A stretch of 33,101 nt of DNA from Acidimicrobiia bacterium (GCA_043782545.1 JAYWAI010000248.1:1-33101); one strand, 5' to 3'. Shown: positions 1,301 through 31,532, counted from the first letter of the stretch. A program made the numbers and translations. Notes: generated by a model from the letters alone, not told the origin.

Positions 1301-1314
1301 TGACACTTGTGTCA
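1301..1314. promoter_or_regulatory. Candidate operator, perfect palindrome TGACAC-TT-GTGTCA
   Basis: Perfect 6+6 inverted repeat in the 61-bp divergent spacer between the thiolase-like gene (start 1286, -) and the SDR gene (start 1348, +). One of nine copies in the window. Confidence 0.6.
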
Positions 1315-1347
1315 ACTCGTCGTTTCGAAGGGCGCTAGGTTGCGGCC

Positions 1348-2118
1348 ATGAGAAATCGTTTGGCAGGCAAAGTGGCGCTGGTATCCGGCTCGACGCGGGG
1401 GATTGGGCGTTCAGTCGCCGAGATGTTCTCGGCGCAAGGAGCTAAGGTCGCGGTGACGGGGCGCACGGTGGACCGGGGTGCCAAAGTGGTTGACGCCATC
1501 CGGGCCAATGGGGGCGAGGCAGAATTCTTCACGCTGGACATCACCAGTGAAGACAGCGTGCGTGATGTGATCAATGCCGTAGCTGAACGCTTCGGCGGAC
1601 TCACCACGTTGATCAACAACGCCGCGCCGACCGCCACGGTGGCACGAACAGTGAAACCATTGCATCAATACGGGACCGACGAGTGGAATGACATCCTCAC
1701 GGGAACCTTGACAGGCAACGTGTTCTGGGCGTCGAAATACGCGTGGCCATATCTCGTCGCGGCCCAAAGCTCTGCGTCGATTGTCAACATTTCGTCGGAC
1801 CAGTCGATACTGGGCTTACGCGGCTTTGGTGCTTACGCGGCGGCCAAGGGCGGCATGAATAGCGTCACTCGCACGCTCGCCGCCGAGGGAGCGGCCAACG
1901 GTATCCGGTGCAACACGATTGTGGTGGGCCGCGTCGTCAGCGGTCGCGGTGACTCCGGGGTGGGCATGACCAAAGGCGGCCTGAGCACCGTTGGCAACCC
2001 CAATCAGATTGCCGCTACAGCGCTGTTTCTGGCGTCAGATGAATCTTCATTTATCACCGGCGAACTCATCGTCGCAGACGGCGGCCTCGCTATGAACGGC
2101 GACGTCCACATGGCCTAA
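1348..2118 (+). CDS. SDR family oxidoreductase (FabG-like)
   Basis: 256 aa. Contains LAGKVALVSGSTRGIGRS (TGxxxGIG Rossmann motif), NNAA and YAAAK (YxxxK). TAGGTT lies 6 nt upstream of the ATG. Confidence 0.9.
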   Translation: MRNRLAGKVALVSGSTRGIGRSVAEMFSAQGAKVAVTGRTVDRGAKVVDAIRANGGEAEFFTLDITSEDSVRDVINAVAERFGGLTTLINNAAPTATVARTVKPLHQYGTDEWNDILTGTLTGNVFWASKYAWPYLVAAQSSASIVNISSDQSILGLRGFGAYAAAKGGMNSVTRTLAAEGAANGIRCNTIVVGRVVSGRGDSGVGMTKGGLSTVGNPNQIAATALFLASDESSFITGELIVADGGLAMNGDVHMA

Positions 2119-3164
2119 TCCTGTCGGGCGGCGAAGTGTTGGGCCAATGGGCCGAGGAGTTCTGGGACGGCGCCGTGGATGATGATCTCGTCGGCTCCAG
2201 CAGCGAGGTAATCCTGTAGCCGTGCCGCGCAATGCGCAGCCGTGCCGACAGCGGACGCTTCGCTCAGCCAGTGTTGGGGGAGCGCTCGGCTCACTTCGGC
2301 GAGTTGTTCCTTAGTGAAAATATCATCGGCGGCACCTCGCAAATTGACCAACATCGGGTGGGCGCGAAATGCGGTGAGCGCATTCACGTCCCACTGGTTG
2401 ACGGCGGCGAGCAAGTCGCCGAAGGCCGGGATTTGGTAGTACGTCACGGCCCGCCCGCCAACAATGGCGAGCTCGTGATCGCTTGTCACATCGGGAGCGG
2501 TCACCACAGTGGCGTACACCTTGACGGCGGTTGGATCGCGCCCTGCCTCGCTTGCGGCGCCTCGCACAATTGCGGCAGAGCGGGCGACCGCGTCGACGGT
2601 GAGAAACGGATGCAAAATCACGCCGTCGTAGTGCCGGCCAGCCAGCGTCAATGTGTTGGGGCCCATAGCGGCCAGCAACAGCGGAGGCGGAGGTACGGCA
2701 GGTAAGTCGCCGAGTTTGAGGGCCGGAAATTTGCCGGCGGGGCCGTCGTAACGCACCTTTTCGCCAGCGCACAATCGACGGTGGATGTCAGCGGAATCAA
2801 TCAGAATTTGATTCGACATCGGTGGGAACCCAGCGGCCCGCCACGTCGGCGCGACTGATCGACCAACACCTAACATGAACCGGCCGTTGCTGAGTGCTTG
2901 CAGCGTCATCGCCATGCTGGCCTGCGCTAACGGATGCCGAAATAGGTAGTGCGAGATACCGGTGGCAATTTTGACGGTGTGGGTGGCCTGCGCCACTGCT
3001 CCTCCAATTGCTGCCACGTCTTTGGTGCCATAACGTTCGCTGATCCACACGGTGCCGAGCCCGAGGTGCTCAGCAGTTTGGGCCTGACCTATAGCTAATC
3101 GAGGATCGGTTACCCGACCTGGCAAGAGGTACGCGCCGATCTGGTCGAGTGAAGTGGTCGGCAT
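2115..3164 (-). CDS. LLM-class (luciferase-like) F420/flavin-dependent oxidoreductase
   Basis: MPTTSLDQIGAYLLPGRVTDPRLAIGQAQTAEHLGLGTVWISERYGTKD is a typical LLM N-terminus. The ORF track starts at GTG 3182, inside the palindrome, so I prefer ATG 3164. The start is uncertain because no SD is seen. Confidence 0.8.
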   Translation of the reverse strand: MPTTSLDQIGAYLLPGRVTDPRLAIGQAQTAEHLGLGTVWISERYGTKDVAAIGGAVAQATHTVKIATGISHYLFRHPLAQASMAMTLQALSNGRFMLGVGRSVAPTWRAAGFPPMSNQILIDSADIHRRLCAGEKVRYDGPAGKFPALKLGDLPAVPPPPLLLAAMGPNTLTLAGRHYDGVILHPFLTVDAVARSAAIVRGAASEAGRDPTAVKVYATVVTAPDVTSDHELAIVGGRAVTYYQIPAFGDLLAAVNQWDVNALTAFRAHPMLVNLRGAADDIFTKEQLAEVSRALPQHWLSEASAVGTAAHCAARLQDYLAAGADEIIIHGAVPELLGPLAQHFAARQD

Positions 3165-3174
3165 CGGCGTATTC

Positions 3175-3188
3175 TGACACACGTGTCA
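3175..3188. promoter_or_regulatory. Candidate operator, perfect palindrome TGACAC-AC-GTGTCA
   Basis: Perfect inverted repeat filling the 18-bp gap between the LLM (-) and kinase (+) genes. The right half-site GTGTCA equals codons 1-2 (GTG TCA) of the kinase ORF. TATTCT lies at 3170-3175. Confidence 0.6.
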
Positions 3189-4271
3189 CATGTCGTTCCC
3201 GCTAGAGACCCGGTCGAGACGGCCAACACGTTGGCGATGTGGTTAGCCGCGCGAATGTCTGTCGAAGCGGTCGAAGTTGTCAACCTGTCGATTCCGGCTG
3301 CGGGGTTTTCCAATGAGACCATTTTGGTGACGGCACGATGGATAGCGAATGACGGAGCGCAGAACTCCTGTGATTTCGTGTTGCGTATTGAGCCGACGAG
3401 TCATCAATTGTTTGCTCAGCCCGACGCGATCCGACAGGCACGGGTGATGCAAGGATTGCAGGGCCGTGTCCCGGTCCCAAACGTGCTCTTTACCGAATCT
3501 GAGAATGGCTACTTTGGGGCGCCGTTTTACGTAATGGAACGCGTGAACGGGCGCGTGCCTGGCGATGTGCCGAGCTTCCACAAGCGGGGCTGGGTGGCAG
3601 AGTTAACACCGCAAGAGCGAGCGACGCTGCACCGGAACGCCGTTGGATCGTTGGTCGACCTCCACTCGATCCCCAACTCGACCGAGTTAAAATTTCTGGC
3701 CCAAACGCCGAGCCAAACGCCGAGCCAAACGCCGAGCCGTGCATCGGCGTTGTGGCACTACGTCGACAGCGTGCGCCAGTTCCACGAACTCAGCAAGCCC
3801 ATGTTGGTGCATGATCGAGCCGTGATTGACCGAGGGTTGTCGTACGTCATCAGCGAAATGCCCGACGACAGCGCCTCGTCGGTGGTGTGGGGTGACGCAC
3901 GCGTCGGCAACATCATTTTCGCTGACGATCTCTCCGTTGCCGCCTTGGTCGACTGGGAGGGAGCCACGGCCGGGCCGCCAGAAATCGACGTGGCGTGGTG
4001 GGGCATGTTCGACGAATTCCTCTGCGAGTGTCAAGGTCTCGTTCGGCTCGATGGGGTACCGACGCCGCAATCGTTTCTCGAGCAGTACGAGGCGCTGAGC
4101 GGTCGTCGGCTGGCCAACCTCAACTACTACCGTGTGTTATCCACCCTCGTGTTTTCGCTCATCAACAGTCGCCTGGCCGCGTTGTTGGTCGACACGGGAA
4201 AATCGACACCCGAGTTCGCCCGCCAAATAGTGACACGGGTGACCTCCATGATGCGCCAATCCTTGGGGTGA
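3183..4271 (+). CDS. Phosphotransferase-family protein (APH / acyl-CoA-dehydrogenase-associated kinase fold)
   Basis: 362 aa. Contains GFSNETILV, the catalytic-loop-like VVWGDARVGNIIF, and VDWEGATAGPPEIDVAWW (the DWE motif of APH-type kinases). The GTG start at 3183 is probably leaderless. Confidence 0.8.
   Translation: MSHVVPARDPVETANTLAMWLAARMSVEAVEVVNLSIPAAGFSNETILVTARWIANDGAQNSCDFVLRIEPTSHQLFAQPDAIRQARVMQGLQGRVPVPNVLFTESENGYFGAPFYVMERVNGRVPGDVPSFHKRGWVAELTPQERATLHRNAVGSLVDLHSIPNSTELKFLAQTPSQTPSQTPSRASALWHYVDSVRQFHELSKPMLVHDRAVIDRGLSYVISEMPDDSASSVVWGDARVGNIIFADDLSVAALVDWEGATAGPPEIDVAWWGMFDEFLCECQGLVRLDGVPTPQSFLEQYEALSGRRLANLNYYRVLSTLVFSLINSRLAALLVDTGKSTPEFARQIVTRVTSMMRQSLG
3701..3738 (+). 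repeat. Perfect 12-bp tandem repeat (ccaaacgccgag x3.2), in frame
   Basis: Units at 3701-3712, 3713-3724 and 3725-3736, plus 2 nt. Encodes QTPSQTPSQTPS inside the kinase ORF. Confidence 0.9.
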
Positions 4272-4292
4272 AAGCTTTAACGCACTCATGCT

Positions 4293-5033
4293 CTAGCGCC
4301 CTTCGCCAAGGTACGCGGACTCGAGCAGTGACGGATCCTTGCGAAATTCGGCGGCGTTGCCGTACATCGAAACACTGCCGTGGACGAGCACCATTGCCTC
4401 ATCGGCCACCTCGAGAGCCAAGCCGATGTGTTGCTCTACGAGCACCACCGCCGCACCAGTATTGTCAGCAATTTGGCGCACGACGGGCAGTAGTGACTCC
4501 ACAATGATCGGAGCCAGCCCCATGCTCATCTCGTCGACAAGAAGGACTTTGGGTTGTTGGACGAGGCCGCGAGCCATGGCCAACATTTGTTGCTCACCGC
4601 CCGAGAGTGCGCCAGCTTTGATTTTTATTCGGGTGCGTAGGGAGGGGAAGAGATCCAGAACGTAATCGATGTTCTTAACGCCCTTGGGACGAGCGATTTC
4701 GATATTTTCCTTCACTGTCAACGTGGTGAACAGTGCTCTGTTGTCGGGCACTAGGACGACACCGGACAAATTCGCAGCCGACGGCTTACCACTCGATAGC
4801 GACTTTCCGTTGAGCAAAACGTCCCCGAGAATGCGCGGTAGCAATCCAGCCATTGTCATCATCAACGTTGATTTCCCGGCACCGTTCGGACCAAGTACAG
4901 CGAGCACTTTCCCCGGTTGCAACCGCAGGTTGAGATCTCGAAATCCCACGATTTTGCCGTATCCGCCGACGAGATTGCGGCACTCCAACACCGGCGTGTC
5001 GTGCGGTTCTATGGCGGGTGATTCGGCGATCAT
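4293..5033 (-). CDS. livF: Branched-chain-amino-acid-type (HAAT family) ABC transporter ATP-binding protein, LivF-like
   Basis: 246 aa. Walker A GPNGAGKST, signature LSGGEQQML, Walker B LLLVDE. ATGA overlap with the upstream fused permease/ATPase gene. Confidence 0.9.
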   Translation of the reverse strand: MIAESPAIEPHDTPVLECRNLVGGYGKIVGFRDLNLRLQPGKVLAVLGPNGAGKSTLMMTMAGLLPRILGDVLLNGKSLSSGKPSAANLSGVVLVPDNRALFTTLTVKENIEIARPKGVKNIDYVLDLFPSLRTRIKIKAGALSGGEQQMLAMARGLVQQPKVLLVDEMSMGLAPIIVESLLPVVRQIADNTGAAVVLVEQHIGLALEVADEAMVLVHGSVSMYGNAAEFRKDPSLLESAYLGEGR

Positions 5034-7840
5034 TGCATGACCTCTTCGATCATTGATTCACCATGAGACTCGCCATGCGTCGTGCCCAAGTAGGCGTCGA
5101 TAACTCGCCGATTGCTCCGTATTTCTGCTGGCGTTCCTTGTGCGATGAGCTGACCAAAATCGAGCACCACGATGTAGTCGCAGAGGCCCAATACCAAATT
5201 GACATCATGGTCGACCATCAGGATGGTTGCTCCCATGTCACGAATATCTCGCAATCGTTCGCTGAGCCACTCGCTCTCCATCGAATCCAATCCAGCTGCC
5301 GGTTCGTCCAGAAGCAGCAAGTCGGGCTCAGCCACCAGTGCCCGACCAATTGAAACCAGTTGCCGTTGCCCCTGGGATAAATCGCCTGCCGGACGATCAC
5401 GAAGATCGCCGATACGCAGGGTTCCAATTGTGCGATCCAAGCTGGCTTTCGAGACGGCGCCAAAACCTTGGCGACCGCTGGCCAAACCAACCGTAAGGTT
5501 TTCTTCGACGGTGAGATCTTCGTACAGCTCGATGGCTTGAAAGGTTCTGGTCAGGCCGAGTTTGACCCGCTGATGCGGACGTTTGCCTTCGAGGTCAACG
5601 CCGTTGAGAGAAATACGTCCAGTCGAGTTGGCGAATCCGGTGAGGGCATCGATGGTGGTGGTCTTGCCTGCGCCATTGGGGCCGATGAGGCCAACAATGG
5701 CCCCCTGAGGTACGTCGAATGACACGTCGTTGACTGCCACTACGCCGCCGTAGGCAACACGTAGATTTTCGACGCGCAACAGGGTGGGCGCATCCGTGAG
5801 GTCGATTGTTTGACGCTGCGAAACGCTCGAAGTTGTGATGTCAGACGCCATGTCACCACCAGATCCTCGTAGTCGCTTTCTGGTTTTTTCGCGCACGTCT
5901 CTGACCATCAAATGGGCAGGGCCGGTGATGCCTTCTGGATTGGTAATCACTGTCACAATCAGCAAAACGGCAGTCACGATTTGGTACCACTTGCCGAGTG
6001 AAAACCATTTGTTGGTGGCGTAGTACACCACGGCGCTACCTCCGAGGAATCCAGCGGCAACACCGCCGGACACTGAGGTAATGCCGGCGAGGTAGGTCGT
6101 GCTAAAGAGTCCGAGTCCGACCAGCGGGAGGTATTGAGAATCAGACGCCGTGCCGTACCGGTACGCCAACACCGTGCCACCAATACCGGCGATAAATGAG
6201 GCAATGGCAAACGCGACCAGCTTCACCCGAAAGACGTCGACGCCCGCCGCAGCAGCGGAACGTTCGTTGGCCCGTACGGCCACCATGGCTGATCCAAGAT
6301 GGCTTCGGCGCAGAAAGGCGACTCCGGTACCGGCGAGGGTAAGCACCGTGAGAGCAAAAAGGCCGAATGCGATATGCGAGGCGTTTTTTGATTGTCCGTA
6401 GTCGAGATTGATGCCAAACAGTTTCGGCTTCGGGATGTCGACACCGCCCTTGAGACCCACAATGTCGGTGTTCTTGAACCAAACGTTTTCGATAGCCACG
6501 GCCAGACTTAGCGTGACCACGGCGACGCTCAGTCCTCGAACTCGCAATGCTGGTAACCCGACGACAACGCCAAGTGCCGTGGCAAACAGGGCCGCCAAAA
6601 TTGGAGCGACGGGGAATGGGATACCCCACTCCTTTGCTATGTAACTCAGCGAGTAGGCGGCAGTGCCCGCCAACGTGAGTTGAGCTAGTGAGATTTGGCC
6701 GGCATATCCCGAAACGACCACTAGTGACAATGAGAGCGTCCCGAATATCAAGCTGATGATGTAGGCCTGACGCCATTCGCCGTGTAAGGCGAGCAGTGCC
6801 AAAATTCCCAGGGCCACGCTGATGGCGGCAGTGGCGGGCACGTTGCGCGGTCGCGGCGCGCGGCCGAGCGATCGTTGCAACAATGCGCCACGTTCGGGCA
6901 ATGGTTTACCGCGCACGACGAGTACGAGTAACACGATGACGAGCGGCACAAGTTCCGGGCCCCCCACTTTGGGAAACCACGAAAACGTTTGCGGGAGAAA
7001 CAGTGTTTCTGATCCCAGCATGCCAATTGCCAGACCGCCGGCGGCGGCGAGGCCGAGGTGTTCGAATCGCCCTAGCACCGCGGCCGCCAGGGCGGGAATG
7101 ATGTAGAACGTGTAAGCCAACGGTGGTGGAGTTATCGAGCTCATCGAGGCGATCAAGATCCCCGCTAAGCCGGCCACGACCGATGACAACATCCAGTTGA
7201 TTGCCGCAACTCGTTGGGGCGAAATGCGGCTCACGGCCGCCCCTTTTTCCGTCTCGGCGGCGGCGCGGGTAGCTAGGCCGAACCGTGTGTATTTGAAACC
7301 TACGCCGAGCACTGCCGCCAGGATGATCACCGTGAGGGCAAACCACAATCGGTCAGTCGACACAACGGCGGCGCCGAGTTTGAACTTCGACGTGGGATAG
7401 ATCTTTTTTGACTTGGCGCCGCTGGCTCCAGCTTTGTTGACGGTGAGCGTGACGAGCAGAATTTGCACGCCGAGCGACGCCACGACTTTGGCCACGGGCG
7501 GCGCCGCTCTCAGCGGCCGGAAAACGGCCAAATACAACGTCAGGCCGAGCAGCGCTGACAGTGTGAGCGAGATAGCAAACCCGGTGTACACGTTAGGCAT
7601 AAACGGCAATTTGTACGTCTTGTCAAGGCCCGGCAATAGCGGCAGAAACTGTCCATCGCGCAAGTACGAGTAGACGTACGCGGCATACAGAGCGATTGAT
7701 CCAGTGGCGAAGTTGATGACACCGGAGCTGCGGTAGGTGACCACCAGAGCAATAGCCAACGCAGCAAACACTGCTCCGTTCCCCGTGCCAAGTAAGAGAT
7801 TGCCAAGATGACTCATTGTCGAAAAAATCCGTTCAGTCAA
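5030..7840 (-). CDS. Fused LivH-LivM-LivG polypeptide (two permease domains plus an ATPase domain)
   Basis: Uninterrupted 936-aa ORF. Residues ~10-330 are LivH-like (GVINFATGS..). Residues ~340-650 are LivM-like (LSLVVVSGYAGQISLAQ..). Residues ~680-936 are LivG-like (GLIGPNGAGKTT, LSQGQRQLV, LLLLDEPAAG). TTG at 7840 is the track start; the first ATG is at 7816. Confidence 0.85.
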   Translation of the reverse strand: MTERIFSTMSHLGNLLLGTGNGAVFAALAIALVVTYRSSGVINFATGSIALYAAYVYSYLRDGQFLPLLPGLDKTYKLPFMPNVYTGFAISLTLSALLGLTLYLAVFRPLRAAPPVAKVVASLGVQILLVTLTVNKAGASGAKSKKIYPTSKFKLGAAVVSTDRLWFALTVIILAAVLGVGFKYTRFGLATRAAAETEKGAAVSRISPQRVAAINWMLSSVVAGLAGILIASMSSITPPPLAYTFYIIPALAAAVLGRFEHLGLAAAGGLAIGMLGSETLFLPQTFSWFPKVGGPELVPLVIVLLVLVVRGKPLPERGALLQRSLGRAPRPRNVPATAAISVALGILALLALHGEWRQAYIISLIFGTLSLSLVVVSGYAGQISLAQLTLAGTAAYSLSYIAKEWGIPFPVAPILAALFATALGVVVGLPALRVRGLSVAVVTLSLAVAIENVWFKNTDIVGLKGGVDIPKPKLFGINLDYGQSKNASHIAFGLFALTVLTLAGTGVAFLRRSHLGSAMVAVRANERSAAAAGVDVFRVKLVAFAIASFIAGIGGTVLAYRYGTASDSQYLPLVGLGLFSTTYLAGITSVSGGVAAGFLGGSAVVYYATNKWFSLGKWYQIVTAVLLIVTVITNPEGITGPAHLMVRDVREKTRKRLRGSGGDMASDITTSSVSQRQTIDLTDAPTLLRVENLRVAYGGVVAVNDVSFDVPQGAIVGLIGPNGAGKTTTIDALTGFANSTGRISLNGVDLEGKRPHQRVKLGLTRTFQAIELYEDLTVEENLTVGLASGRQGFGAVSKASLDRTIGTLRIGDLRDRPAGDLSQGQRQLVSIGRALVAEPDLLLLDEPAAGLDSMESEWLSERLRDIRDMGATILMVDHDVNLVLGLCDYIVVLDFGQLIAQGTPAEIRSNRRVIDAYLGTTHGESHGESMIEEVMQ

Positions 7841-7864
7841 TATTCAGATTGACGAGGAGACACG

Positions 7865-7903
7865 AAAAAGGGGGTGGCATCGACCTGAGTCGACGCCACC
7901 CCC
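7865..7903 (-). terminator. Intrinsic terminator/attenuator hairpin between the SBP and permease genes
   Basis: The minus-strand RNA reads GGGGGUGGCGUCGAC-UCAG-GUCGAUGCCACCCCC-UUUUU. That is a 15-bp GC-rich stem with 1 mismatch, a 4-nt loop and a U5 tail. It starts 28 nt after the SBP stop codon. Confidence 0.6.
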
Positions 7904-7930
7904 GTAGTGCATTGAACTACTGGCTAAAGA

Positions 7931-9232
7931 TCAGGAGCCGACTTTGAAGTTAGTAGCGGTGCCCTTGTCGTCGAGGACGGCAGTGGCATACGAGACTGTG
8001 CACACTGGTGGGAAAATGGCAATCGCCTTACCGTCACAGTTAAAGGTCGCTCCCTTGAGCGTGGGGTACGGGTACGGGCCGCCGGTCTTGATGGCTGCGG
8101 TGACTGCTTCCTTGGTGACATCGCCGGTGACTTTTGCCATGATCTCGTTGAATGCGGTGATCACTGCGAAGGACCCGACTGGCGTACCTGCAGGGTTGAC
8201 CTTGGAGTCGTACTTTGCCACAATTCCCTTGAAGAGCACGATGTCAGCGTTAGCTGGGTCTTCGCCGGCTGCGTAGCTCACGATGATGTCTTTCAATTGT
8301 GCGCCAAGCGACGATACAACCGTTTTGTCCAGGCAGTTTGAAATCATCGTGATGGTGCCCTTAAACGATGCGTCGCGCAAACCCTTGATGGCGGTGGAAC
8401 AGAATGACGGATTGCCAATGATGTGGACGAGCTGGGCGCCTTTAGCAATGATTGCCTGGGCATCGGGGCCCATGTCACTGGCGGCGGCGTCGATACCGAC
8501 GATGTTGAGGTCGGTGATGCCAAGCGGGGTGAAGGCCAAAGGTGCCAACGCCTTTGCCGCGCCGATGGCGGCAGGCACGTTGGTTGACATGATGGCCGCC
8601 GATTTGACGCCCTTTTCTTTCGCAATGGAGGCGGGGAATGCTCCGAGGCCAGCAAGCCCGTTGGACATACTAAAGGCGGCCTGCCCGAGCATTGAGACGT
8701 CTGCTGCGGCGAAAGCCAGGGTAGGAATGCCGGCACCGGAGACGGTTTTGATCCATGGGGCAACCTGACCGTTGACATTCATAAGTACGATCGGCACGCC
8801 GTCGGAGACCATCTTGGCACCACAATCAGCGGCGATCGCTGGATCTTCGTTAGTGCCACAGACATCGAGTTCCAGCTTGTGACCGCCGAAGCCGCCCTTA
8901 TATTCGTTGTAGTACTTCACGACAGCTTGCGCAGCGTTGAGTTCCTCAGTGGCATCAATGCCCGCCGAGACGCCTGAGTAGATGTAGCCGACCTTGAGAG
9001 CTGTACCGGTGGCCGCGGTTGGTGTGCCAAGCACGTCGGGGACGGTAGTGGTGGCACCAGTAGTTGTCGTTGTGTCACCAGCCACAGTGGTCGTAGCTCC
9101 GGTGGTGGTTGCTCCGGTGGTGGTTGTGGCGGTGGTCTTCGAACTGCTGCAAGAAGCGGCAATTATCGAAATCGCCCCAACTGCTGCCACTCGTCGAACA
9201 AATGTCATGGACGTTTTCACGCGTTTCCCCAT
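7931..9232 (-). CDS. ABC transporter substrate-binding lipoprotein (LivK / type I periplasmic-binding fold)
   Basis: 433 aa. Signal peptide with lipobox ..RRVAAVGAISIIAAS|C, then the Thr/Gly-rich linker TTATTTTGATTTGATTTVAGDTTTTTGATTT, then an SBP body. Possible starts are 9232 (ATG), 9220 (GTG, with GGGGAA upstream) or 9208 (ATG). Confidence 0.85.
   Translation of the reverse strand: MGKRVKTSMTFVRRVAAVGAISIIAASCSSSKTTATTTTGATTTGATTTVAGDTTTTTGATTTVPDVLGTPTAATGTALKVGYIYSGVSAGIDATEELNAAQAVVKYYNEYKGGFGGHKLELDVCGTNEDPAIAADCGAKMVSDGVPIVLMNVNGQVAPWIKTVSGAGIPTLAFAAADVSMLGQAAFSMSNGLAGLGAFPASIAKEKGVKSAAIMSTNVPAAIGAAKALAPLAFTPLGITDLNIVGIDAAASDMGPDAQAIIAKGAQLVHIIGNPSFCSTAIKGLRDASFKGTITMISNCLDKTVVSSLGAQLKDIIVSYAAGEDPANADIVLFKGIVAKYDSKVNPAGTPVGSFAVITAFNEIMAKVTGDVTKEAVTAAIKTGGPYPYPTLKGATFNCDGKAIAIFPPVCTVSYATAVLDDKGTATNFKVGS
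9096..9125 (-). repeat. 15-bp tandem duplication (gctccggtggtggtt x2) within the Thr-rich linker coding region
   Basis: Exact copies at 9096-9110 and 9111-9125, embedded in a longer ggt/ggc-rich low-complexity tract (~9040-9140). Confidence 0.8.
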
Positions 9233-9286
9233 TCATTGTTGGCCCGACGCCCCCCTTGGGGTCGGGACGTCGCTCGTTGCCGAATC

Positions 9287-9300
9287 TGACGCGAGTGTCA
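9287..9300. promoter_or_regulatory. Candidate operator TGACGC-GA-GTGTCA (1 mismatch)
   Basis: Lies in the 191-bp divergent spacer between the SBP operon (-) and the P450 operon (+). The left flank TC extends the symmetry. Confidence 0.5.
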
Positions 9301-9423
9301 CCTTAGCAGTGAGCGGTGTCCGGCGTAAATAGGTGAACAATTAGTTTGTCGTCGTTTGCGATGACTTCCGGTGGCGTGATCGCTATAGAGTCGCGGTCTT
9401 ATCGACTGGTAACAAGGGGCGTC

Positions 9424-10623
9424 ATGAACACAACAGAGACAACGACCGCGACGGAATGCCCGTTTCGGTACGAGGACGCCCCGATGGGTTACGACCGTAC
9501 GGCGGGGTGGGCTTACATAAATTCCCACGGGCCTGTGGCCCTCGCCGAAGATGGCGCGTACTACCTCACCACTGCCGAGGCTGTGCAGTTTGCTCATCGC
9601 CGTCCAGATATTTTTCAATCGGGACCAGCGTTCGAAAGTTTGGGTAGCCCAATTCCCTTGGTGCCGCTGGCCATCGATCCGCCGAATCACAGTCGCTACC
9701 GCAAGATCCTGGACCCGATGTTGGCGCCTCGGGTCATCAACGCTATGGAGGACTCGCTTCGCCTTCAGGTACGCGAGCTCATCGAAGTATTTGCAGGAAA
9801 CGGCTCTTGTGATGTGATCACCGACCTTGCTCGGTTGTACCCCACTCAAGTGTTCATGACACTTTTTGGGCTGCCTTTGGAAGATCGCGACAAGTTCATG
9901 GCCTGGACCGAGGTCATTGTGTCTCAGGGGGGTGTGCAATCTGAGGAAGCCAGCGCGCAAGTAATGACGGCAGCGATCGACCTTATTACGTATCTTGGGG
10001 TCTACATCGAAATCAAGCGCGAGACACCTGGCGATGATCTTTTGAGCTCGGTGTTGGCGCTCACGGGCGACGATGCGTTCACCATGGATGAACTTCTCGG
10101 GATGTGTTTCCTCTTCGTGCTGGCGGGCCTTGACACGGTCATGTCGACCATAGGTTTTGTCATGTTGCACCTTGCTCGGAATCCTGAACTGCGCCGGGCT
10201 CTCGTCGCCGACCCAACCAAAGTCAATGCCGCGATAGAGGAAATTGTGCGGCTCGAACTGCCCGCCCCCATGACGCCTCGAATTGCGTCGCAGGACGTCG
10301 AAGTGTGCGGCGTGATGATCCCGGCTGGGGCACGCGTGAACTTGGTGTTGGGTTCGGCAAACCGAGATCCCGAGCGTTTTGAACTTCCCGACGACATCAA
10401 TCTGGCGGCAGGCGATCGTGGCCATTTATCGTTTGGTGGCGGCATTCATCGCTGCCTTGGCTCGCACCTGGCGCGGCGTGAGTTACGTCTTGTGGTCGAA
10501 GAATTTCATCGGCTCATCCCTGAATACTCTGTGGCGCCAGGCGCCGAGCCACACATCGAATGGCCCTCTGGCACCTACCATCTCACGTCTCTACCCCTTC
10601 AATTCCCCGTGGTGAACAAATGA
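9424..10623 (+). CDS. Cytochrome P450 monooxygenase
   Basis: Heme-binding loop FGGGIHRCLGSHLARRE (FxxGxHxCxG), the I-helix-like LFVLAGLDTV, and the ExxR-like EEIVRLE. I prefer ATG 9424, which has AAGGGG 4 nt upstream. The ORF track starts at TTG 9346. Confidence 0.9.
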   Translation: MNTTETTTATECPFRYEDAPMGYDRTAGWAYINSHGPVALAEDGAYYLTTAEAVQFAHRRPDIFQSGPAFESLGSPIPLVPLAIDPPNHSRYRKILDPMLAPRVINAMEDSLRLQVRELIEVFAGNGSCDVITDLARLYPTQVFMTLFGLPLEDRDKFMAWTEVIVSQGGVQSEEASAQVMTAAIDLITYLGVYIEIKRETPGDDLLSSVLALTGDDAFTMDELLGMCFLFVLAGLDTVMSTIGFVMLHLARNPELRRALVADPTKVNAAIEEIVRLELPAPMTPRIASQDVEVCGVMIPAGARVNLVLGSANRDPERFELPDDINLAAGDRGHLSFGGGIHRCLGSHLARRELRLVVEEFHRLIPEYSVAPGAEPHIEWPSGTYHLTSLPLQFPVVNK

Positions 10624-10811
10624 AAATTTCAATCGACGAACAACTCTGCACCGGTCACGCACGATGCGTGGCGATGGCACCGAATCTCTTCACTGACGAT
10701 GATCGCGGCTACGGCGTCGTCATTGGCGATGGCACCGTAACTGACGCCCTCGTCGATGAGGCGCACCGGGCAGTTGCCGCGTGCCCAGAGCGAGCCATTT
10801 CACTCTCCTAA
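10620..10811 (+). CDS. Small 3Fe-4S-type ferredoxin (P450 redox partner)
   Basis: 63 aa, MKISIDEQLCTGHARCVAMAPNLF...ACPERAISLS, with the CxxHxxC...CP cluster motif. ATGA overlap with the P450 stop codon. Confidence 0.85.
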   Translation: MKISIDEQLCTGHARCVAMAPNLFTDDDRGYGVVIGDGTVTDALVDEAHRAVAACPERAISLS

Positions 10812-10842
10812 CACATATTTAATTCACGAAAGGTTGTCAACA

Positions 10843-11700
10843 ATGGCAGGACGTTTAGAAGGCAAAGTCGCGCTCATTACCGGCGCGGCGATGGGGCAGG
10901 GCAAGAGCCACTGCATCCGCTTGGCCGAGGAAGGCGCGGCAATCATCGCGACCGACCTGTGCGCCCAAATCGACAGCGTCCGCTACCCGCTGGGCTCTGA
11001 TGCTGACCTCGCCGACACGGTGGCCAAGGTCGAAGCTGTAGGCGGTCGCATTGTTGCCGTCAAGGCTGACGTTCGTGAACGCAACGAAATGCGTGACGCT
11101 GTTGCGCAAGGTTTGGCGGCGTTTGGTCGCCTCGATATCGTGTGTTGTAACGCTGGCATCTTGCCGGTGAAGGATCGCGAAGTGCAGGCGTTCATCGATG
11201 CCGTCGATGTCGACTTTGGCGGAGTGCTCAACACAATTGCTGTGACCATGGAGCACCTCGGCGCTGGTGCGTCGATCGTGTTGACGGGCTCTACGGCCGG
11301 CATGATGCCCGGTGCGGTAAATAACCCGCAGCTTGGGCCAGGCGGCACGGGCTATGGCCTGTCGAAGAAGATGATCTTGGATTACACCGAATCGCTGGCG
11401 TTGCAGGTGGCGACCCGCATGATCCGTGTGAATGCCATCCACCCCACCAACACCAACACCAATTTGTTGCATAACGCCGACATTTACGGTGTGTTTCGCC
11501 CTGACCTGTCGGCGCCAACGCTCGATGACGTTTTGCCGGTGTTCAACATGTTCCAGGCCATGCCGATCCCGTTTGTGGAGCCCCGCGACATCAGCAACTT
11601 GGTGCTGTTCCTGGCCTCGGACGAGTCGCGCTACATGACTGGCCTCAACATTCGGATTGATGCCGGCGCATTCATCAAATCGCCTGGTATACCCGGGTGA
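10843..11700 (+). CDS. SDR, mycofactocin-coupled / carveol-dehydrogenase-like subfamily
   Basis: 285 aa. LEGKVALITGAAMGQGKSHCIRLAEEGAAIIATDLCAQIDSVRYPLGSDADLADTV..DVRE plus YGLSK match the signature N-terminus of this subfamily. RBS GAAAGG upstream of ATG 10843. Confidence 0.8.
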   Translation: MAGRLEGKVALITGAAMGQGKSHCIRLAEEGAAIIATDLCAQIDSVRYPLGSDADLADTVAKVEAVGGRIVAVKADVRERNEMRDAVAQGLAAFGRLDIVCCNAGILPVKDREVQAFIDAVDVDFGGVLNTIAVTMEHLGAGASIVLTGSTAGMMPGAVNNPQLGPGGTGYGLSKKMILDYTESLALQVATRMIRVNAIHPTNTNTNLLHNADIYGVFRPDLSAPTLDDVLPVFNMFQAMPIPFVEPRDISNLVLFLASDESRYMTGLNIRIDAGAFIKSPGIPG

Positions 11701-11715
11701 TGTGACGGCTGTTCT

Positions 11716-12486
11716 GTGGCGCAAAATCTGACCGGGCGATCAGCGTTAGTTACTGGCTCTGGCCAAGGCGTGGGTGCAGCAATTGCGCGCACCTTCGCTG
11801 TGGCCGGAGCCTTTGTATATGTCAACGATCTCATTGCCGGCCGTGCCCAGGCTGTGGTCGACGACATCGTTGCGAGCGGCGGACAAGCAGCGGCGTTGGT
11901 ATTTGACGTGACTTCGTACGCGGCGGTCGGCGACGCCATTTCTACCAGCGGCCCAGTCGACATTTTGGTCAACAACGCTGGCAACGCCGGTGGCGATGCG
12001 TGGCCGTCGATGGTGCCGTTTGCGCGTAGCGAGCCGTCTGATTGGGCCCCGTATTTGAGGGTCAATTTGGATGGCGTGATGAATTGCGTGAGGGCGTGCC
12101 TGCCGGGAATGATCGAGGGATCGTGGGGTCGCGTGATCACCATTATGAGCGACGCTGGTCGAGTTGGTTCGCCCAATATGGCCGCGTACGCGGCCGCTAA
12201 GGCGGGCGCCGCCGCGGTAACTCGGAGCGTTGCTCACGAAGAGGCTCGCCATGGCATCACGGCCAACAACATTTCGCTGGGCACCATGCGCACGCCGCTT
12301 ACCGAAGCCGTGTGGGCCGACCCCGACAACGCAACAGGCAAAGCGCTCATGGCGCACTATTTGGTGCGCCGACCCGGCTCCCCGAACGATGTGACAGCAC
12401 TGGCATTGCTGCTCGCCAGTGACGACGGCGAATGGATCACCGGCCAGACCTATCCCGTGAATGGCGGCTTTTCGCTGGCTCTGTGA
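11716..12486 (+). CDS. SDR family oxidoreductase (FabG-like)
   Basis: 256 aa. Contains LTGRSALVTGSGQGVGAAIA, NNAGNAG and YAAAKAG. GTG start. Confidence 0.85.
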   Translation: MAQNLTGRSALVTGSGQGVGAAIARTFAVAGAFVYVNDLIAGRAQAVVDDIVASGGQAAALVFDVTSYAAVGDAISTSGPVDILVNNAGNAGGDAWPSMVPFARSEPSDWAPYLRVNLDGVMNCVRACLPGMIEGSWGRVITIMSDAGRVGSPNMAAYAAAKAGAAAVTRSVAHEEARHGITANNISLGTMRTPLTEAVWADPDNATGKALMAHYLVRRPGSPNDVTALALLLASDDGEWITGQTYPVNGGFSLAL

Positions 12487-12505
12487 AAATCAGGGAGCGT
12501 TGCGG

Positions 12506-12519
12506 TGACACGAGTGTCA
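12506..12519. promoter_or_regulatory. Candidate operator, perfect palindrome TGACAC-GA-GTGTCA
   Basis: Lies in the 48-bp co-directional spacer upstream of the VOC gene. It is followed by TAGGGT (12523-12528), 6 nt before the GTG at 12535. Confidence 0.6.
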
Positions 12520-12534
12520 GATTAGGGTGATGGC

Positions 12535-16451: not shown

Positions 16452-16462
16452 AGCGGGTCGAT

Positions 16463-18410: not shown

Positions 18411-18418
18411 GACTGTTA
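18405..18418. promoter_or_regulatory. Degenerate operator copy TGACAC-GA-CTGTTA (2 mismatches)
   Basis: Lies at the crotonase (-) / ligase (+) divergent junction. The left half-site on the minus strand (GTGTCA) equals codons 1-2 of the crotonase gene. A 21-nt stretch is 19/21 identical to the copy at 12506. Confidence 0.35.
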
Positions 18419-18453
18419 GATTAGGCCGCGACGCCCGCCCTAACATGCACACC

Positions 18454-22294: not shown

Positions 22295-22308
22295 TGACAC
22301 TAGCGTCA
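22295..22308. promoter_or_regulatory. Candidate operator TGACAC-TA-GCGTCA (1 mismatch)
   Basis: Lies in the 42-bp divergent spacer between the Hsd4A-like SDR (-) and the first crotonase (+). The right flank GA extends the symmetry. Confidence 0.45.
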
Positions 22309-22330
22309 GAAGCTCGATCGAGGGAGAGTC

Positions 22331-25018: not shown

Positions 25019-25437
25019 TTCGACACCGGCCGAAAAACAGGAATCGTGATTTCATCTGAGAGCATTTCGAAGTCGACTTCGAGCGCCATGCCAATGCGGG
25101 CATCTGACTCAGAAACGCCAACCAAGTTGGACAAGAAGTGCAATTGCGGTTGTTCAATTAGTGCGACGGTGGCCAACAAGTACGGCACCCGGTCGACGAA
25201 GTAAGGGTGAAACGCTTTGTGCGTTTCGGTAAATGAATACAGCGTTGCCCGTCCGGAAACTTGCTCGAAGGCCAGGTCGAAACCTTGGCAATTGCGGCAA
25301 ACGGGTCGCGGCAGATGGATATACGTGCCGCATGCCTGGCAACGCAAAATGCGAAGCTGGCGTTGCCGGGTACCTTCCCAAAATGGCTCGGTGAACGGCT
25401 CGATAACTATTGGCGGAGGAGCGACATTTTGACTCAT
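25015..25437 (-). CDS. DUF35 OB-fold / Zn-ribbon protein (thiolase partner)
   Basis: 140 aa. Contains FWEGTRQRQLRILRCQACGTYIHLPRPVCRNC (Cys4 ribbon) followed by an OB-fold tail. The ATG overlaps the TetR stop codon (ATGA). Confidence 0.85.
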   Translation of the reverse strand: MSQNVAPPPIVIEPFTEPFWEGTRQRQLRILRCQACGTYIHLPRPVCRNCQGFDLAFEQVSGRATLYSFTETHKAFHPYFVDRVPYLLATVALIEQPQLHFLSNLVGVSESDARIGMALEVDFEMLSDEITIPVFRPVSK

Positions 25438-26786
25438 GTGGCGACAATGACCCTTTCAATGAACGTTGCTTGCATTTCGATAATCGCCGGGACGGTGGGC
25501 TCATATTTGCTGCCGCGCCCTTCGTTCGGTACATGCTCAAGTAGCGCGGAGAGCATCAAGCCCGCTGCCCGGCGATCCAGTGCGTAGGCCCGGCTTTGGC
25601 CGAAGAGTGAGCGCACTGCGGCGCCGATCCCAATCACGGTATCTCGGCACGCAGAGAGGGTTTGCGGGTCGTTGGGATAGCCCTCCGTCCACGAACGCAA
25701 CACCCCGGCATATCGTTCTTGCAATACGATGAAACCGTTGAGCCACGCGCGGAGGGCCGCTGGGTCGTTGGTAGAGGCAGCGACGCCGAGCTGTTGGAAT
25801 GGCGGCGTCATGGCGAGGGCACAATCGTGGGCGAGGTATCGCAACAGGTCGAGTTTGTCAGTGAAATAGCGGTAGTAGGTACCTCGTGCCACACCGGCCT
25901 TTTTCACAATGGCGTCGATGCTGGCGCCATCGAATCCGGAGTCGGCAAATACCGCACTACCGGCGTCGAGCAGATTTCGCATTGTTTGATGGGCCTGGTC
26001 ACTCAGGTCGAATCGGCCAGTCAGAGGCTCGATGTCTGTTCGAGCCGCCAAGTGCGCCAGTGGTCCCATGGCGTCGGGGCTTGGTGATGGGGCCACTCGA
26101 TGCTGACGACCCAGGGCTGACTGCGGCCCGGCTCGCAAGAACTCGTGAGGCGTATCGGGGAAAAGAAAAAGCTGCAAGGCAGTAGCGATGTTGTCGACGA
26201 GTTGCGTGTTGGTGAGGCCGGGTCGATAGACATGGTTGATGTAGTGGTACCGATTGAGGAGACCTAGCACGACGATCGCCGCGGTGTGTTGATCGCGAAC
26301 GGGGTAGCCAGCGGCAGCGAGGGATTCGCCAAACTGCTCGGCGTGTCTGTCGACGTAGCTGGTAACCCGTGGGCGCAGCGGAGCCTTGGGGGACGCCACG
26401 TTGGCCCACTCGACGAACAAGGTGGCATACCGTTCAAACACCCAATTCCACTCGCCGAGCCACCAATGCAAATTGTCGAAGCCTTCGGGTGTCGGACCGA
26501 TTGCACCGAGGCGACGGGTGACCCGCATTAGCGCATCGCCGGCCTCATCCATGAGCTCGATGAAGATCGCTTGTTTGCTCTCGAAATATTGATACAGCGT
26601 GGCGCGCGAAACATCGGCTGCCGTGGCGATGTCATCGACAGACGTGGTGTGAAAACCGATCTTGGCAAAGCAGCCCAAAGCCGATTCGACGATCTGTTGT
26701 CGGGTCTGGGCACCTCGTTCGCCGATGGTAGGACTCGTAGGTCCGTAGCTGTTTCGCCGTTCGAATGCGTCGGATTTTGCCTTCAA
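25434..26786 (-). CDS. Tandem-duplicated (double) TetR-family transcriptional regulator
   Basis: About 450 aa with two complete TetR modules. HTH 1 is QQIVESALGCFAKIGFHTTSVDDIATAADVSRATLYQYFESK. HTH 2 is RNLLDAGSAVFADSGFDGASIDAIVKKAGVARGTYYRYFTDK. My preferred start is TTG 26786, with GGAGGG 3 nt upstream. The 598-aa track ORF runs antisense through the neighbouring DUF35 gene. Confidence 0.8.
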   Translation of the reverse strand: MKAKSDAFERRNSYGPTSPTIGERGAQTRQQIVESALGCFAKIGFHTTSVDDIATAADVSRATLYQYFESKQAIFIELMDEAGDALMRVTRRLGAIGPTPEGFDNLHWWLGEWNWVFERYATLFVEWANVASPKAPLRPRVTSYVDRHAEQFGESLAAAGYPVRDQHTAAIVVLGLLNRYHYINHVYRPGLTNTQLVDNIATALQLFLFPDTPHEFLRAGPQSALGRQHRVAPSPSPDAMGPLAHLAARTDIEPLTGRFDLSDQAHQTMRNLLDAGSAVFADSGFDGASIDAIVKKAGVARGTYYRYFTDKLDLLRYLAHDCALAMTPPFQQLGVAASTNDPAALRAWLNGFIVLQERYAGVLRSWTEGYPNDPQTLSACRDTVIGIGAAVRSLFGQSRAYALDRRAAGLMLSALLEHVPNEGRGSKYEPTVPAIIEMQATFIERVIVAT

Positions 26787-26815: not shown

Positions 26816-26829
26816 TGACGTTAGTGTCA
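26816..26829. promoter_or_regulatory. Candidate operator TGACGT-TA-GTGTCA (2 mismatches, right half perfect)
   Basis: Lies in the 78-bp divergent spacer between the double-TetR operon (-) and the DUF35-thiolase operon (+). The right flank GA extends the symmetry. Confidence 0.4.
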
Positions 26830-26864
26830 GAATAGACCACTGCTCCACGATCAGGGAAGGCAAC

Positions 26865-29708: not shown

Positions 29709-29717
29709 ATGCAATTC

Positions 29718-29731
29718 TGACATATGTGTCA
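29718..29731. promoter_or_regulatory. Candidate operator TGACAT-AT-GTGTCA (1 mismatch)
   Basis: Lies in the divergent spacer between the CoA-transferase (-) and the isochorismatase-like pair (+). The left flank TC extends the symmetry. Confidence 0.5.
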
Positions 29732-29776
29732 GCTATGGTGGCGATTCGACCGGGAGGGACATTTGCCGTGGAGAAA

Positions 29777-30409
29777 ATGCCGAAAACCATTCGAGGACTC
29801 GAGGCGGGCAAACGTCCGGCGCTGGTGATTAGCGAGTGCCAGCGCGGCATTTTGGACCCTGCGCTCACCACGATTGGCGGCCTCGCTGCGCAAGCTGCGG
29901 AGCGAAACATGTTCGTGCATATTGCGCGCCTGGCTGACGCGTTTCGGGGCGCGAATCTACCGGTTGTTCATGCGCATATTGGGTTCCTGCCGGGCTACGC
30001 GGGTGCGGCATTGACGAGCCCCATGATGGGCATGTCGCGCCGCAACAACAAGCTGATGTTGGGCTCGCCCGATGCCGAACCAATGCCGGGTGTCGAACCG
30101 CAGCCCGGCGATTTCGTGTCGCTTCGCCACTCTGGCCTGGTGATGTGGGAAGGCACCCACATCGATTCGACTTTGCGAAATTGCGGCGTCGATACGATCG
30201 TGTTTACCGGCGTGTCCACCAACTTGGCGTTGTTTGGCGGCACGCTCGGTGCAGTGGAGCGGGGGTATTACGCGGTGATCCCCGAGGATGCCACCTCAGG
30301 CGCATCAGCAGAATCGCATCAATGGATGCTGCAAAATTCGTTAAATTTGTTGGCCTGGATCTCGTCCGTCGACGCCGTCATCGATGCCATTTCGCGGTTG
30401 TCAACATGA
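29777..30409 (+). CDS. Isochorismatase-family (cysteine-hydrolase fold) protein
   Basis: 210 aa from ATG 29777 (GGAG 4 nt upstream). Contains PALVISECQRGI and IVFTGVSTNLALFGG. ATG 29735 is an alternative start. Confidence 0.7.
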   Translation: MPKTIRGLEAGKRPALVISECQRGILDPALTTIGGLAAQAAERNMFVHIARLADAFRGANLPVVHAHIGFLPGYAGAALTSPMMGMSRRNNKLMLGSPDAEPMPGVEPQPGDFVSLRHSGLVMWEGTHIDSTLRNCGVDTIVFTGVSTNLALFGGTLGAVERGYYAVIPEDATSGASAESHQWMLQNSLNLLAWISSVDAVIDAISRLST

Positions 30410-31059
30410 GTACGCCAAGCGATCGGTTTCGCCAAATCGTTGATCCGTCGCACACCGCCGTGGTAACCATGGAGCTGCAACGGGGCATCGTGGGCGACCA
30501 GGCCGTGTTGCCGGCATTGCCCGTAGCGGTGCGTGAAGCGGGCATGCTCGAGATCGCGGGACGTGTGTGCCGGGCGGCGCGAATTGTGGGTGCTCGTGTT
30601 GTGCACGCCACCATGGAAGAGCGAGCCGACGGCCTCGGCCAGGCGGTCAACTGCAAGATATTTTCGATTGTGGCCAAGCGCAGGGCCGAGGTCGGGTTTT
30701 CACCCACCGAAATTGGTCAACCAGGGGCCGAACTCGTGGAAGAACTCGACGTGCAGCCAGCCGACGTGAAGGTGGCGCGTATGCACGGCATGACTCCGTT
30801 TACTGGTACGGAACTCGACGCCGTCATTCGCAACATGCGTGTCACCACAATCGTGCTCATGGGCGTCTCGCTCAATCTGGGCATTATCGGAGCGGCACTC
30901 AGTGCGCTTGATTTGGGATACCAGGTAGTGGTTGTTCGTGACGCCGTCGTGGGTTTGCCCAAGGCATATGCGGACGCGGTGCTCGAAAATTCGATCGCCA
31001 TGATTGCTACGGTTGTGACCGCCGATGAGTTGATCGCCGCATGGGGCGAGTCTTTGTAG
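30406..31059 (+). CDS. Isochorismatase-family protein (paralog of the preceding gene)
   Basis: 217 aa from ATG 30406 (ATGA overlap). Contains TAVVTMELQRGI and IVLMGVSLNLGIIGA. Confidence 0.75.
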   Translation: MSTPSDRFRQIVDPSHTAVVTMELQRGIVGDQAVLPALPVAVREAGMLEIAGRVCRAARIVGARVVHATMEERADGLGQAVNCKIFSIVAKRRAEVGFSPTEIGQPGAELVEELDVQPADVKVARMHGMTPFTGTELDAVIRNMRVTTIVLMGVSLNLGIIGAALSALDLGYQVVVVRDAVVGLPKAYADAVLENSIAMIATVVTADELIAAWGESL

Positions 31060-31069
31060 GCCGTGCGTT

Positions 31070-31501
31070 CTAGATGTCGGGAAAGATCGAGTCGGGCACT
31101 TTGCCGTCGACCGTTACTCGTCGCTCCGCAAAGCGCCACTGGCCGTCCACGACGCGGTAGCTGTCGACGTAGCGTCCCCAATGATCAAGCCCAATTGGCG
31201 TGATGACCGAGAAATACACGCGCCCCGTGGCATGGGCCTCATCAACGAGGTCGATCTGATGCGTGGACGTCGAATGGCGTAGGTACGCCGGCGTGTCGTG
31301 GCCGGCGATCTGGGATTGCGTGTTGGTGAAAATGGTCATGACTTCGTCGATGCCGACATAGCTCTGACCCATGAGATGCATTGACGCGTCGAGCGCAAAC
31401 AATGGCCGCACCTGGGCGAAACGCCCGCTGTCGCCGTTGGCGTTGTACCGCGTCACCAAATCTCGGATGCTTTCGCGTGCGATGACTTCCCACAGTTCCA
31501 C
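31070..31501 (-). CDS. NTF2-like / SnoaL-family protein
   Basis: 143 aa from GTG 31501 (GGGGAG 6 nt upstream). The pattern I..L..RY....D......LF..D... and the C-terminal WRFAERRV are typical of SnoaL_4/NTF2 folds. The 294-aa track ORF extends antisense into the next gene. Confidence 0.65.
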   Translation of the reverse strand: MELWEVIARESIRDLVTRYNANGDSGRFAQVRPLFALDASMHLMGQSYVGIDEVMTIFTNTQSQIAGHDTPAYLRHSTSTHQIDLVDEAHATGRVYFSVITPIGLDHWGRYVDSYRVVDGQWRFAERRVTVDGKVPDSIFPDI

Positions 31502-31518
31502 TGAGTTCTCCCCAAAAT

Positions 31519-31532
31519 TGACACATGTGTCA
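31519..31532. promoter_or_regulatory. Candidate operator, perfect palindrome TGACAC-AT-GTGTCA
   Basis: Lies in the 75-bp divergent spacer between the SnoaL-like gene (-) and the HSD10-like SDR (+). Confidence 0.6.

Follow-up and report, generated by a model that had tools for sequence, protein, structure and literature searches.

The stretch of DNA analysed here, 33,101 nucleotides from an Acidimicrobiia bacterium (GCA_043782545.1 JAYWAI010000248.1:1-33101), is called the window in the following and carries nine copies of a 14-bp near-palindrome, TGACAC-N2-GTGTCA. The best explanation of these nine sites is that they are the operators of a repressor encoded in the window itself at 25434-26786, a double TetR, i.e. 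a single polypeptide chain with two TetR-type helix-turn-helix domains. We consider this explanation likely. It includes parts which we infer, namely the binding, repression over activation, the assignment of the two heads to the half-sites and the ligand. An earlier note, made from the sequence alone, had proposed a regulon-wide operator at shared bidirectional promoters of about 17 transcription units. Position and conservation of the sites, their intergenic bias and the motif density in control loci support this proposal.

Four copies of the motif are perfect (TGACACNNGTGTCA; positions 1301, 3175, 12506 and 31519), as the earlier note had read them, while 100 dinucleotide-preserving shuffles of the window contained no perfect copy at all. 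When up to two mismatches are allowed, the window holds 11 matches as compared to 1.69 expected. These are the nine sites already listed in the earlier note plus 4231 and 20963, both of which are coding (20963 scores 10.3 bits, 4231 stays below the 9-bit listing threshold) and probably due to chance. Scores of a symmetrised weight matrix are bimodal, with the nine sites at 16.3-24.3 bits and all others in the window coding and at most at 10.7 bits; the matrix is derived from the same nine sites it scores and the high mode exists partly by construction.

Concerning the position of the sites, a gene map of the window (59% G+C) was built from Pfam, NCBIfam and start codon inspection. It leaves 1111 bp (3.4%) non-coding and reveals exactly eight divergent junctions of 18-113 bp. 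All nine sites fall within this non-coding fraction, one in each of the eight divergent junctions and the ninth ahead of a VOC gene. Seven of them are entirely non-coding and two, 3175 and 18405, overlap a predicted GTG start by 6 nt. The placement described in the earlier note, in or at the edge of non-coding DNA, with one copy per divergent junction and a ninth before the VOC gene, is reproduced by this independent gene map. TetR operators in general are short inverted repeats of about 14-18 bp in target promoter regions, and all nine sites have this form. The operators and the genes on either side of them (strand in parentheses) are:

Operator 1, 1299-1314, tcTGACACTTGTGTCA, 24.3 bits: 61-bp gap between a thiolase-like gene (-) and an SDR gene (+)
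Operator 2, 3173-3188, tcTGACACACGTGTCA, 22.8 bits: between an F420-type luciferase-like oxidoreductase gene (-) and an APH-family kinase gene (+), overlapping GTG 3183
Operator 3, 9285-9300, tcTGACGCGAGTGTCA, 20.4 bits: between the ABC-transporter operon (-) and the P450 operon (+)
Operator 4, 12506-12521, TGACACGAGTGTCAga, 23.2 bits: 48-bp co-directional gap ahead of the VOC operon
Operator 5, 18405-18420, TGACACGACTGTTAga, 16.3 bits: between an enoyl-CoA hydratase gene (-) and an ADP-forming acyl-CoA synthetase gene (+)
Operator 6, 22295-22310, TGACACTAGCGTCAga, 21.9 bits: between an SDR pair (-) and an enoyl-CoA hydratase pair (+)
Operator 7, 26816-26831, TGACGTTAGTGTCAga, 19.7 bits: between the regulator gene (-; start TTG 26786, 30 nt away) and a DUF35-thiolase operon (+; 35 nt away)
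Operator 8, 29716-29731, tcTGACATATGTGTCA, 21.7 bits: between a family III CoA-transferase gene (-) and an isochorismatase-family pair (+)
Operator 9, 31519-31534, TGACACATGTGTCAga, 23.9 bits: between a SnoaL-like gene (-) and an SDR gene (+)

The operon behind Operator 4 comprises VOC, amidohydrolase, two acyl-CoA dehydrogenases and a hydrolase. Operator 7 is a candidate autoregulatory site. The gene it precedes on the minus strand is:

Candidate regulator, 25434-26786, minus strand: 450-amino-acid single-chain double TetR with two TetR_N helix-turn-helix domains (Pfam)

This gene is the first of a three-gene operon and is followed by a DUF35 and a thiolase-like gene. Its product is the sole transcription factor found in the window by Pfam and the sole regulator common to six homologue loci, L016-L021. 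TetR_N is present on all 120 homologues listed, most of which are 417-487 amino acids long, with homologues at 447-451. With two TetR_N domains in one chain of about 400-450 amino acids, the protein has the hallmarks of a double TetR. Its closest relatives (55-58% identical) come from uncultured Actinomycetota or Acidimicrobiia, and relatives at 41-45% identity are found in Streptomyces, Frankia, Pseudonocardia, Amycolatopsis and Cryptosporangium. In a search of the regulator against NCBIfam no model reached its cut-off; the family is therefore unnamed. Of the homologues P0058 and P0118, one (604 amino acids) is fused to a MaoC acyl dehydratase and another (684 amino acids) to a TIGR00027-type methyltransferase, fusions which tie the family to acyl-CoA chemistry.

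An AlphaFold2 model of the regulator, based on 28 homologues, reached a predicted local distance difference test score (pLDDT) of 85 and a predicted template modelling score (pTM) of 0.84. In a Foldseek search of the PDB, Mce3R (9b7y_A) was the top and only full-length match (438 aligned columns, template modelling score 0.66, 17% identity). All remaining matches cover one half of the model, and each half matches FadR and FasR structures. The regulator is thus predicted from the model to fold as an intramolecular pseudo-dimer of its two halves, M1 and M2. These halves are 28% identical over 107 residues (E = 1e-11), and both recognition helices retain R-x-T-x-Y-x-Y-F-x-x-K. Family-invariant differences set them apart, TLYQYF in M1 as compared to TFY(R/K)YF in M2. 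Recognition helices which are alike but unequal fit an operator which is near-palindromic but not quite symmetric. The N-terminal arm of M1 is arginine-rich and conserved (RRxSYGP).

The six homologue loci (about 21 kb each, 59-71% G+C) encode regulators 41-58% identical to that of the window, and all of them carry the motif. L020 comes from Streptomyces sp. NPDC048254 (protein P0074) and L021 from Cryptosporangium aurantiacum (GCA_900143005.1). Of 27 matches with at least 10 bits, 24 lie wholly in annotated non-coding DNA, which accounts for 6.3% of positions (binomial P = 3e-26); at least one of the three non-intergenic matches, L016:17856, marks the 5' end of an over-long gene call. The earlier note had suggested a comparison of intergenic with coding matches as well as footprinting of orthologous junctions. 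The former, run on these six loci, gave the bias just described, and in the latter the motif was the only conserved block. At the hydratase|SDR junction a 16-nt block, TCTGACGCTAGTGTCA, is identical in the window, L016 and L017, and the flanks have diverged. Other junction types are occupied in related loci too, namely hydratase|DUF35-thiolase, MaoC|CoA-transferase, SDR|SnoaL and LLM|APH. The junction type of Operator 2 has a site in the Streptomyces locus L020 (L020:8698), the SDR|SnoaL junction orthologous to that of Operator 9 has one at L017:2525, and junctions adjoining the CoA-transferase in L017, L018 and L019 likewise carry sites. Operator 5 represents a conserved TGTTA variant; the form aagTGACAC..TGTTAgat also occurs in L028, L029, L030, L031 and L036.

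TetR regulators commonly adjoin their targets and have a site upstream of their own gene. This arrangement is present in the window, where site 26816 lies at 30 nt, and in each of L016-L021, where a site is located 30-73 bp upstream of the regulator start. The best regulator-upstream scores are 13.5-20.9 bits in L016-L019; those of L020 and L021, at 10.6 and 6.4 bits, are weak. In the alignment of regulator-upstream regions the only invariant columns are TGACA...GTCA.

A metagenome scan with the family alignment yielded 80 further loci. A query of a genome collection with the regulator protein alone matched mostly unrelated TetR genes, and loci matched only via the generic TetR helix-turn-helix served as controls (452 kb). 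Motif density is 0.27 matches/kb in the window and 0.10-0.26 in loci with full-length or distant double-TetR relatives, as compared to 0.013-0.019 in the control loci, which is about the shuffle expectation. The family-wide core reads TGACR-N4-YGTCA. Since density is high beside double-TetR relatives and at chance level in the controls, the motif tracks the regulator family and is not a dispersed repeat. The earlier note had named a dispersed repeat without promoter bias as the finding that would speak against its proposal; with about 450 kb of control DNA at chance density, the motif does not behave in this way.

The operator is polar. According to the earlier note the flanks often extend the symmetry to TCTGACAC..GTGTCAGA, and this did not hold: the TC/GA flank is one-sided in all nine window sites and two-sided in none (P = 0.011). 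It is one-sided in 20 of 25 sites of the close clade, with a single two-sided case (P = 0.003), and in 27 of 40 sites of independent metagenome loci, with no two-sided case (P = 0.0008). In 47 sites oriented by the flank, position -3 is A or T in 44. All 11 TAACA and all five TGGCA variants among them lie in the flanked half, and the opposite half is invariant GTCA. An expectation-maximisation orientation test against a symmetric null model gave P = 0.02. A one-sided flank together with unequal degeneracy of the half-sites is unexpected for a symmetric homodimer and fits two different heads. A possible reader of the flank is the arginine-rich arm of M1, given that its counterpart residues in Mce3R touch the DNA.

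Concerning the promoters, a TANNNT-like hexamer is found 5-8 nt before the start codon, without a Shine-Dalgarno sequence, at ATG 1286, ATG 1348, ATG 3164, GTG 3183, GTG 12535, GTG 18410 and ATG 29708. The hexamers TACTGT and TAGGTT end 6 nt before ATG 1286 and ATG 1348, and TAGGGT ends 6 nt before GTG 12535. A hexamer so close to the start codon and the lack of a Shine-Dalgarno sequence suggest leaderless transcripts for several of the genes adjoining the sites. At these putative leaderless genes the operator abuts or overlaps the -10 region. Depending on which start codons are chosen, two of the divergent gaps shrink to 18 bp (3165-3182) and 26 bp (29709-29734). In that case the opposing predicted -10 hexamers would overlap on opposite strands, e.g. 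TATTCT / CAGAAT at 3170-3176, the starts being uncertain. Where the gap is shortest, a single site inevitably spans the promoters of both directions.

The proposed mechanism would work as follows. One double-TetR molecule would dock on the 16-17-bp sequence wTC-TGACAC-NN-GTGTCA, with the helix-turn-helix heads entering successive major grooves. One head would read the invariant GTGTCA half, the other the variable T(G/A)(A/G)CA half with its one-sided wTC flank, where the arginine-rich N-terminal arm of M1 may assist. Since the gaps measure only 18-113 bp and several genes look leaderless, one repressor molecule on its site would cover the core promoters on either side and keep RNA polymerase from transcribing either way. 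In this way it would silence 17 transcription units with 31 genes, its own operon included, the autoregulation acting via site 26816. A pathway intermediate, most likely an acyl-CoA thioester, would enter a single ligand pocket between M1 and M2 and free the protein from DNA. We infer acyl-CoA induction by analogy with KstR, KstR2, FadR and FasR. KstR2, the Bacillus and Thermus FadR proteins and FasR are acyl-CoA-responsive homodimers with other operators, and each half of the model matches FadR and FasR structures. The genomic context predicts an acyl-CoA effector.

In layout the arrangement resembles that of KstR, in regulator architecture and predicted fold that of Mce3R, yet the regulator is an orthologue of neither. 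The KstR operator, TnnAACnnGTTnnA, has the same 14-bp inverted-repeat layout of 6-2-6 and shares T1, A5, C6, G9, T10 and A14. A single KstR site likewise often serves divergent promoters, and KstR too controls a large acyl-CoA-type catabolic regulon and its own gene. In a sequence comparison with the PDB, moreover, KstR chains rank among the better hits for M1 (residues 23-173, E = 5e-7). In contrast to the single-chain double TetR with its polar operator, KstR is a homodimer, and the base identities of the operators differ. The NCBIfam model for KstR (NF033703) gives the regulator 51.4 bits against a cut-off of 280 and covers the helix-turn-helix only. In the window TnnAACnnGTTnnA has one match, which is coding, against 0.33 expected, and none in promoter regions; the KstR2 operator, AnCAAGnnCTTGnT, has no match in the window. 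The distinction from the KstR and KstR2 operators drawn in the earlier note therefore stands as to bases and occurrence, while the 6-2-6 layout is the same as that of KstR.

Mce3R (Rv1963c) of M. tuberculosis (PDB 9b7y) is an asymmetric intramolecular pseudo-dimer which recognises two 25-bp non-palindromic sites 53 bp apart (PMC11667970), and like the regulator it belongs to the tandem-TetR family of Actinomycetes (PMC3711444). It shares with the regulator two TetR helix-turn-helix modules in one chain of roughly 400-450 amino acids, an arginine-rich N-terminal arm, lipid-catabolic targets (predicted ones for the regulator) and, as predicted from the model, a pseudo-dimer fold over the full length. 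Sequence similarity is limited to the helix-turn-helix regions (phmmer E = 5e-12), identity in the structural alignment is 17%, and at the sequence level the two proteins are not orthologous. The operator of Mce3R is paired, 25 bp long and non-palindromic, whereas the sites here are single near-palindromes of 14-17 bp; probe A of the Mce3R supplement lacks TGACA..TGTCA and bears no resemblance to the motif. Mce3R has been proposed to originate from the fusion of two diverse TetRs, whereas the halves here are recognisably homologous (28%). No description of the motif or of the regulator branch was found in the searchable literature, in which Mce3R was the only characterised natural double TetR that we found. 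Two comparative mycobacterial studies contain no such motif.

Motif-like pairs occur in some of the distant loci. In L051 (5403, 5479) and L053 (1278, 1354), which encode relatives of 24-26% identity, the two members are separated by 76 bp and directly precede the regulator. In L066 (131, 208), likewise right ahead of the regulator, the distance is 77 bp; the identity there is 33% over a short match. Pairs in L021 (3981, 4047) and L028 (1101, 1190) are 66 and 89 bp apart and kilobases away from the regulator gene. The spacing of 76-77 bp in L051, L053 and L066 is close to the 78 bp from centre to centre of the Mce3R sites (25-bp sites, 53 bp apart) and hints at bridging by a dimer of monomers in these branches. 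In the window only single sites and no pairs are found.

The sites could be real operators of another regulator encoded outside the window, either a homodimeric TetR or some other helix-turn-helix protein, with the double TetR a mere member of the regulon. A near-palindromic 14-bp site is indeed the classic target of a homodimer, the sites bound by Mce3R, the sole characterised double TetR, are 25 bp long and non-palindromic (PMC11667970), the visible portion of the genome is only 33 kb, and a single-domain TetR is encoded in each of L019, L020 and L021 as well. We nevertheless regard such an arrangement as unlikely. No other regulator is common to all loci and none is encoded in the window, motif density tracks the double-TetR family and drops to chance beside other TetR genes, and the one-sided flank and unequal half-site degeneracy speak against a symmetric homodimer. 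Still less probable, in our view, is that the double TetR binds the sites as an activator, or that they are a bidirectional promoter element instead of a repressor operator. FasR is an example of a TetR-family activator, one of few. The left half of the site often reads TTGAC and resembles a -35 element, and the right flank CAGAWT resembles a -10 element. These two elements are 7 nt apart and incapable of forming one promoter, and the would-be last T of the -10 hexamer is present in only 20 of the 47 oriented sites, a lower conservation than that of the TC flank. In their very short gaps the sites fall on start codons or no more than about 30 nt away from them; they overlap the expected positions of the core promoters or come just downstream of these, and not upstream. 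Most TetR-family regulators are repressors (PMC3511530).

That the motif has no regulatory role, being a dispersed repeat (a repetitive extragenic palindrome, REP, or the end of a miniature inverted-repeat transposable element, MITE), an RNA hairpin or a chance cluster, is hardly credible, even though a short inverted repeat does recur many times in a small region. Shuffled sequences contain none, and similarity stops beyond about 17 bp where the flanks diverge. RNA folds are no stabler than those of shuffled sequences (z from -0.94 to +0.49), a 2-nt spacer is too short for a hairpin loop, and an Rfam search finds nothing. Control loci are at chance density, and the sites are strictly intergenic and keep their positions in genomes with a G+C content of 59-71%. 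Two more candidates were considered apart from these. A CRP-type site (TGTGA-N6-TCACA) was rejected by inspection, the half-sites here being everted relative to it, and the one-sided flank as a -10 box is only partly tenable, its would-be final T being poorly conserved.

Several observations weigh against operators of the double-TetR repressor as set out above. A scan with an E. coli-type sigma-70 consensus, covering positions 1-19000 and thereby the first five junctions, found nothing at the junctions; sigma-70 and terminator hits in this region were no more than chance, the consensus being uninformative for actinobacterial, probably leaderless promoters. The overlap of operator and promoter relies on TANNNT hexamers recognised by eye and on start codons. 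All comparison loci were obtained via the regulator, and the control for co-occurrence consisted of loci of unrelated TetR genes and not of whole genomes. In 10 of 20 loci of relatives with 34-46% identity the fetched DNA holds no site of at least 12 bits, and the upstream regions of these regulators mostly score poorly; the operator may have drifted there, or the starts may have been misjudged. Since many of the sites are orthologous copies of each other, the polarity counts and P values overstate the number of independent events. Finally, the polarity of the autoregulatory site flips among orthologues, the window and L017 against L016 and L018, so that orientation relative to the promoters is not conserved.

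If the double TetR does act as proposed, its operator is a near-palindrome with built-in polarity, composed of one strict half and one relaxed half with a wTC flank. A wider reading then follows, to which we give an even chance: a natural single-chain double TetR other than Mce3R would have its operator logic described for the first time. The clade would have arisen by internal duplication of a palindrome-binding TetR whose heads have since diverged, and a single monomer on each site would be enough to close a pair of back-to-back promoters that are largely leaderless. It would control a widespread F420- and CoA-dependent regulon for lipid or alicyclic-acid catabolism across Actinomycetota, in a clade which spans Acidimicrobiia-like metagenome-assembled genomes to Streptomyces and Cryptosporangium. 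The analysis provides a concrete predicted operator and a 31-gene regulon for an uncharacterised, widespread branch of tandem TetRs, of which only Mce3R has been studied so far. Similar heads and a near-palindromic polar site here contrast with dissimilar heads and a fully asymmetric site in Mce3R, and this contrast could reveal how single-chain TetR repressors evolve DNA specificity. Moreover, the motif can be used to delimit the catabolic regulon in metagenome-assembled genomes and suggests compact bidirectional promoter parts with a single operator. For regulon biology in general the arrangement is an expected one, holds no surprise and belongs with the TetR repressor regulons of actinobacterial lipid catabolism. 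Its sole unusual feature would be that a single-chain double TetR reads an operator which is near-palindromic and yet polar.

The predicted regulon comprises the following genes:

Predicted regulon, 144-32338, both strands: 31 closely packed catabolic genes in 17 transcription units (Pfam, NCBIfam, junction map)
Three thiolase-like genes, two of them paired with DUF35 (ChsH2-type OB-fold)
Three enoyl-CoA hydratases and six SDRs
A PimC-like acyl-CoA dehydrogenase and a partner without the middle domain
A family III CoA-transferase, an ADP-forming acyl-CoA synthetase and a P450
An APH-family kinase, VOC, amidohydrolase_2, an alpha/beta hydrolase, two isochorismatase-family genes and a SnoaL-like gene
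A branched-chain-type ABC importer
Luciferase-like gene, 2115-3164, minus strand: TIGR03857 F420-dependent LLM oxidoreductase, 462 bits against an NCBIfam cut-off of 218

MSMEG_2249 typifies the TIGR03857 family. Since the luciferase-like gene passes the cut-off of this model, the catabolic pathway probably uses coenzyme F420.

In the operon of the ABC importer, at 5030-7840 (minus strand), a 936-amino-acid fusion combines two branched-chain-type permease domains with an ABC ATPase domain and is followed by a separate second ATPase gene (4293-5033). A strong terminator-like hairpin at 7870-7903 (minus strand), with a 15-bp stem of which 11 pairs are G-C and followed by a T-run, sits between the solute-binding-protein and permease genes of this operon. 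It may be an intra-operon attenuator giving surplus binding protein. The largest motif-free gap in the cluster, 132 bp at 10624-10755, separates the co-directional P450 and SDR genes; nothing was found inside it, and it might hold an unregulated internal promoter or an overlooked small open reading frame (ORF). At its right border the catabolic cluster is followed by a gene for a PIN-domain toxin (VapC-like) with a small ORF upstream of it (32362-32975, minus strand), and there is no motif in this region. This small ORF is possibly the antitoxin of the PIN toxin.

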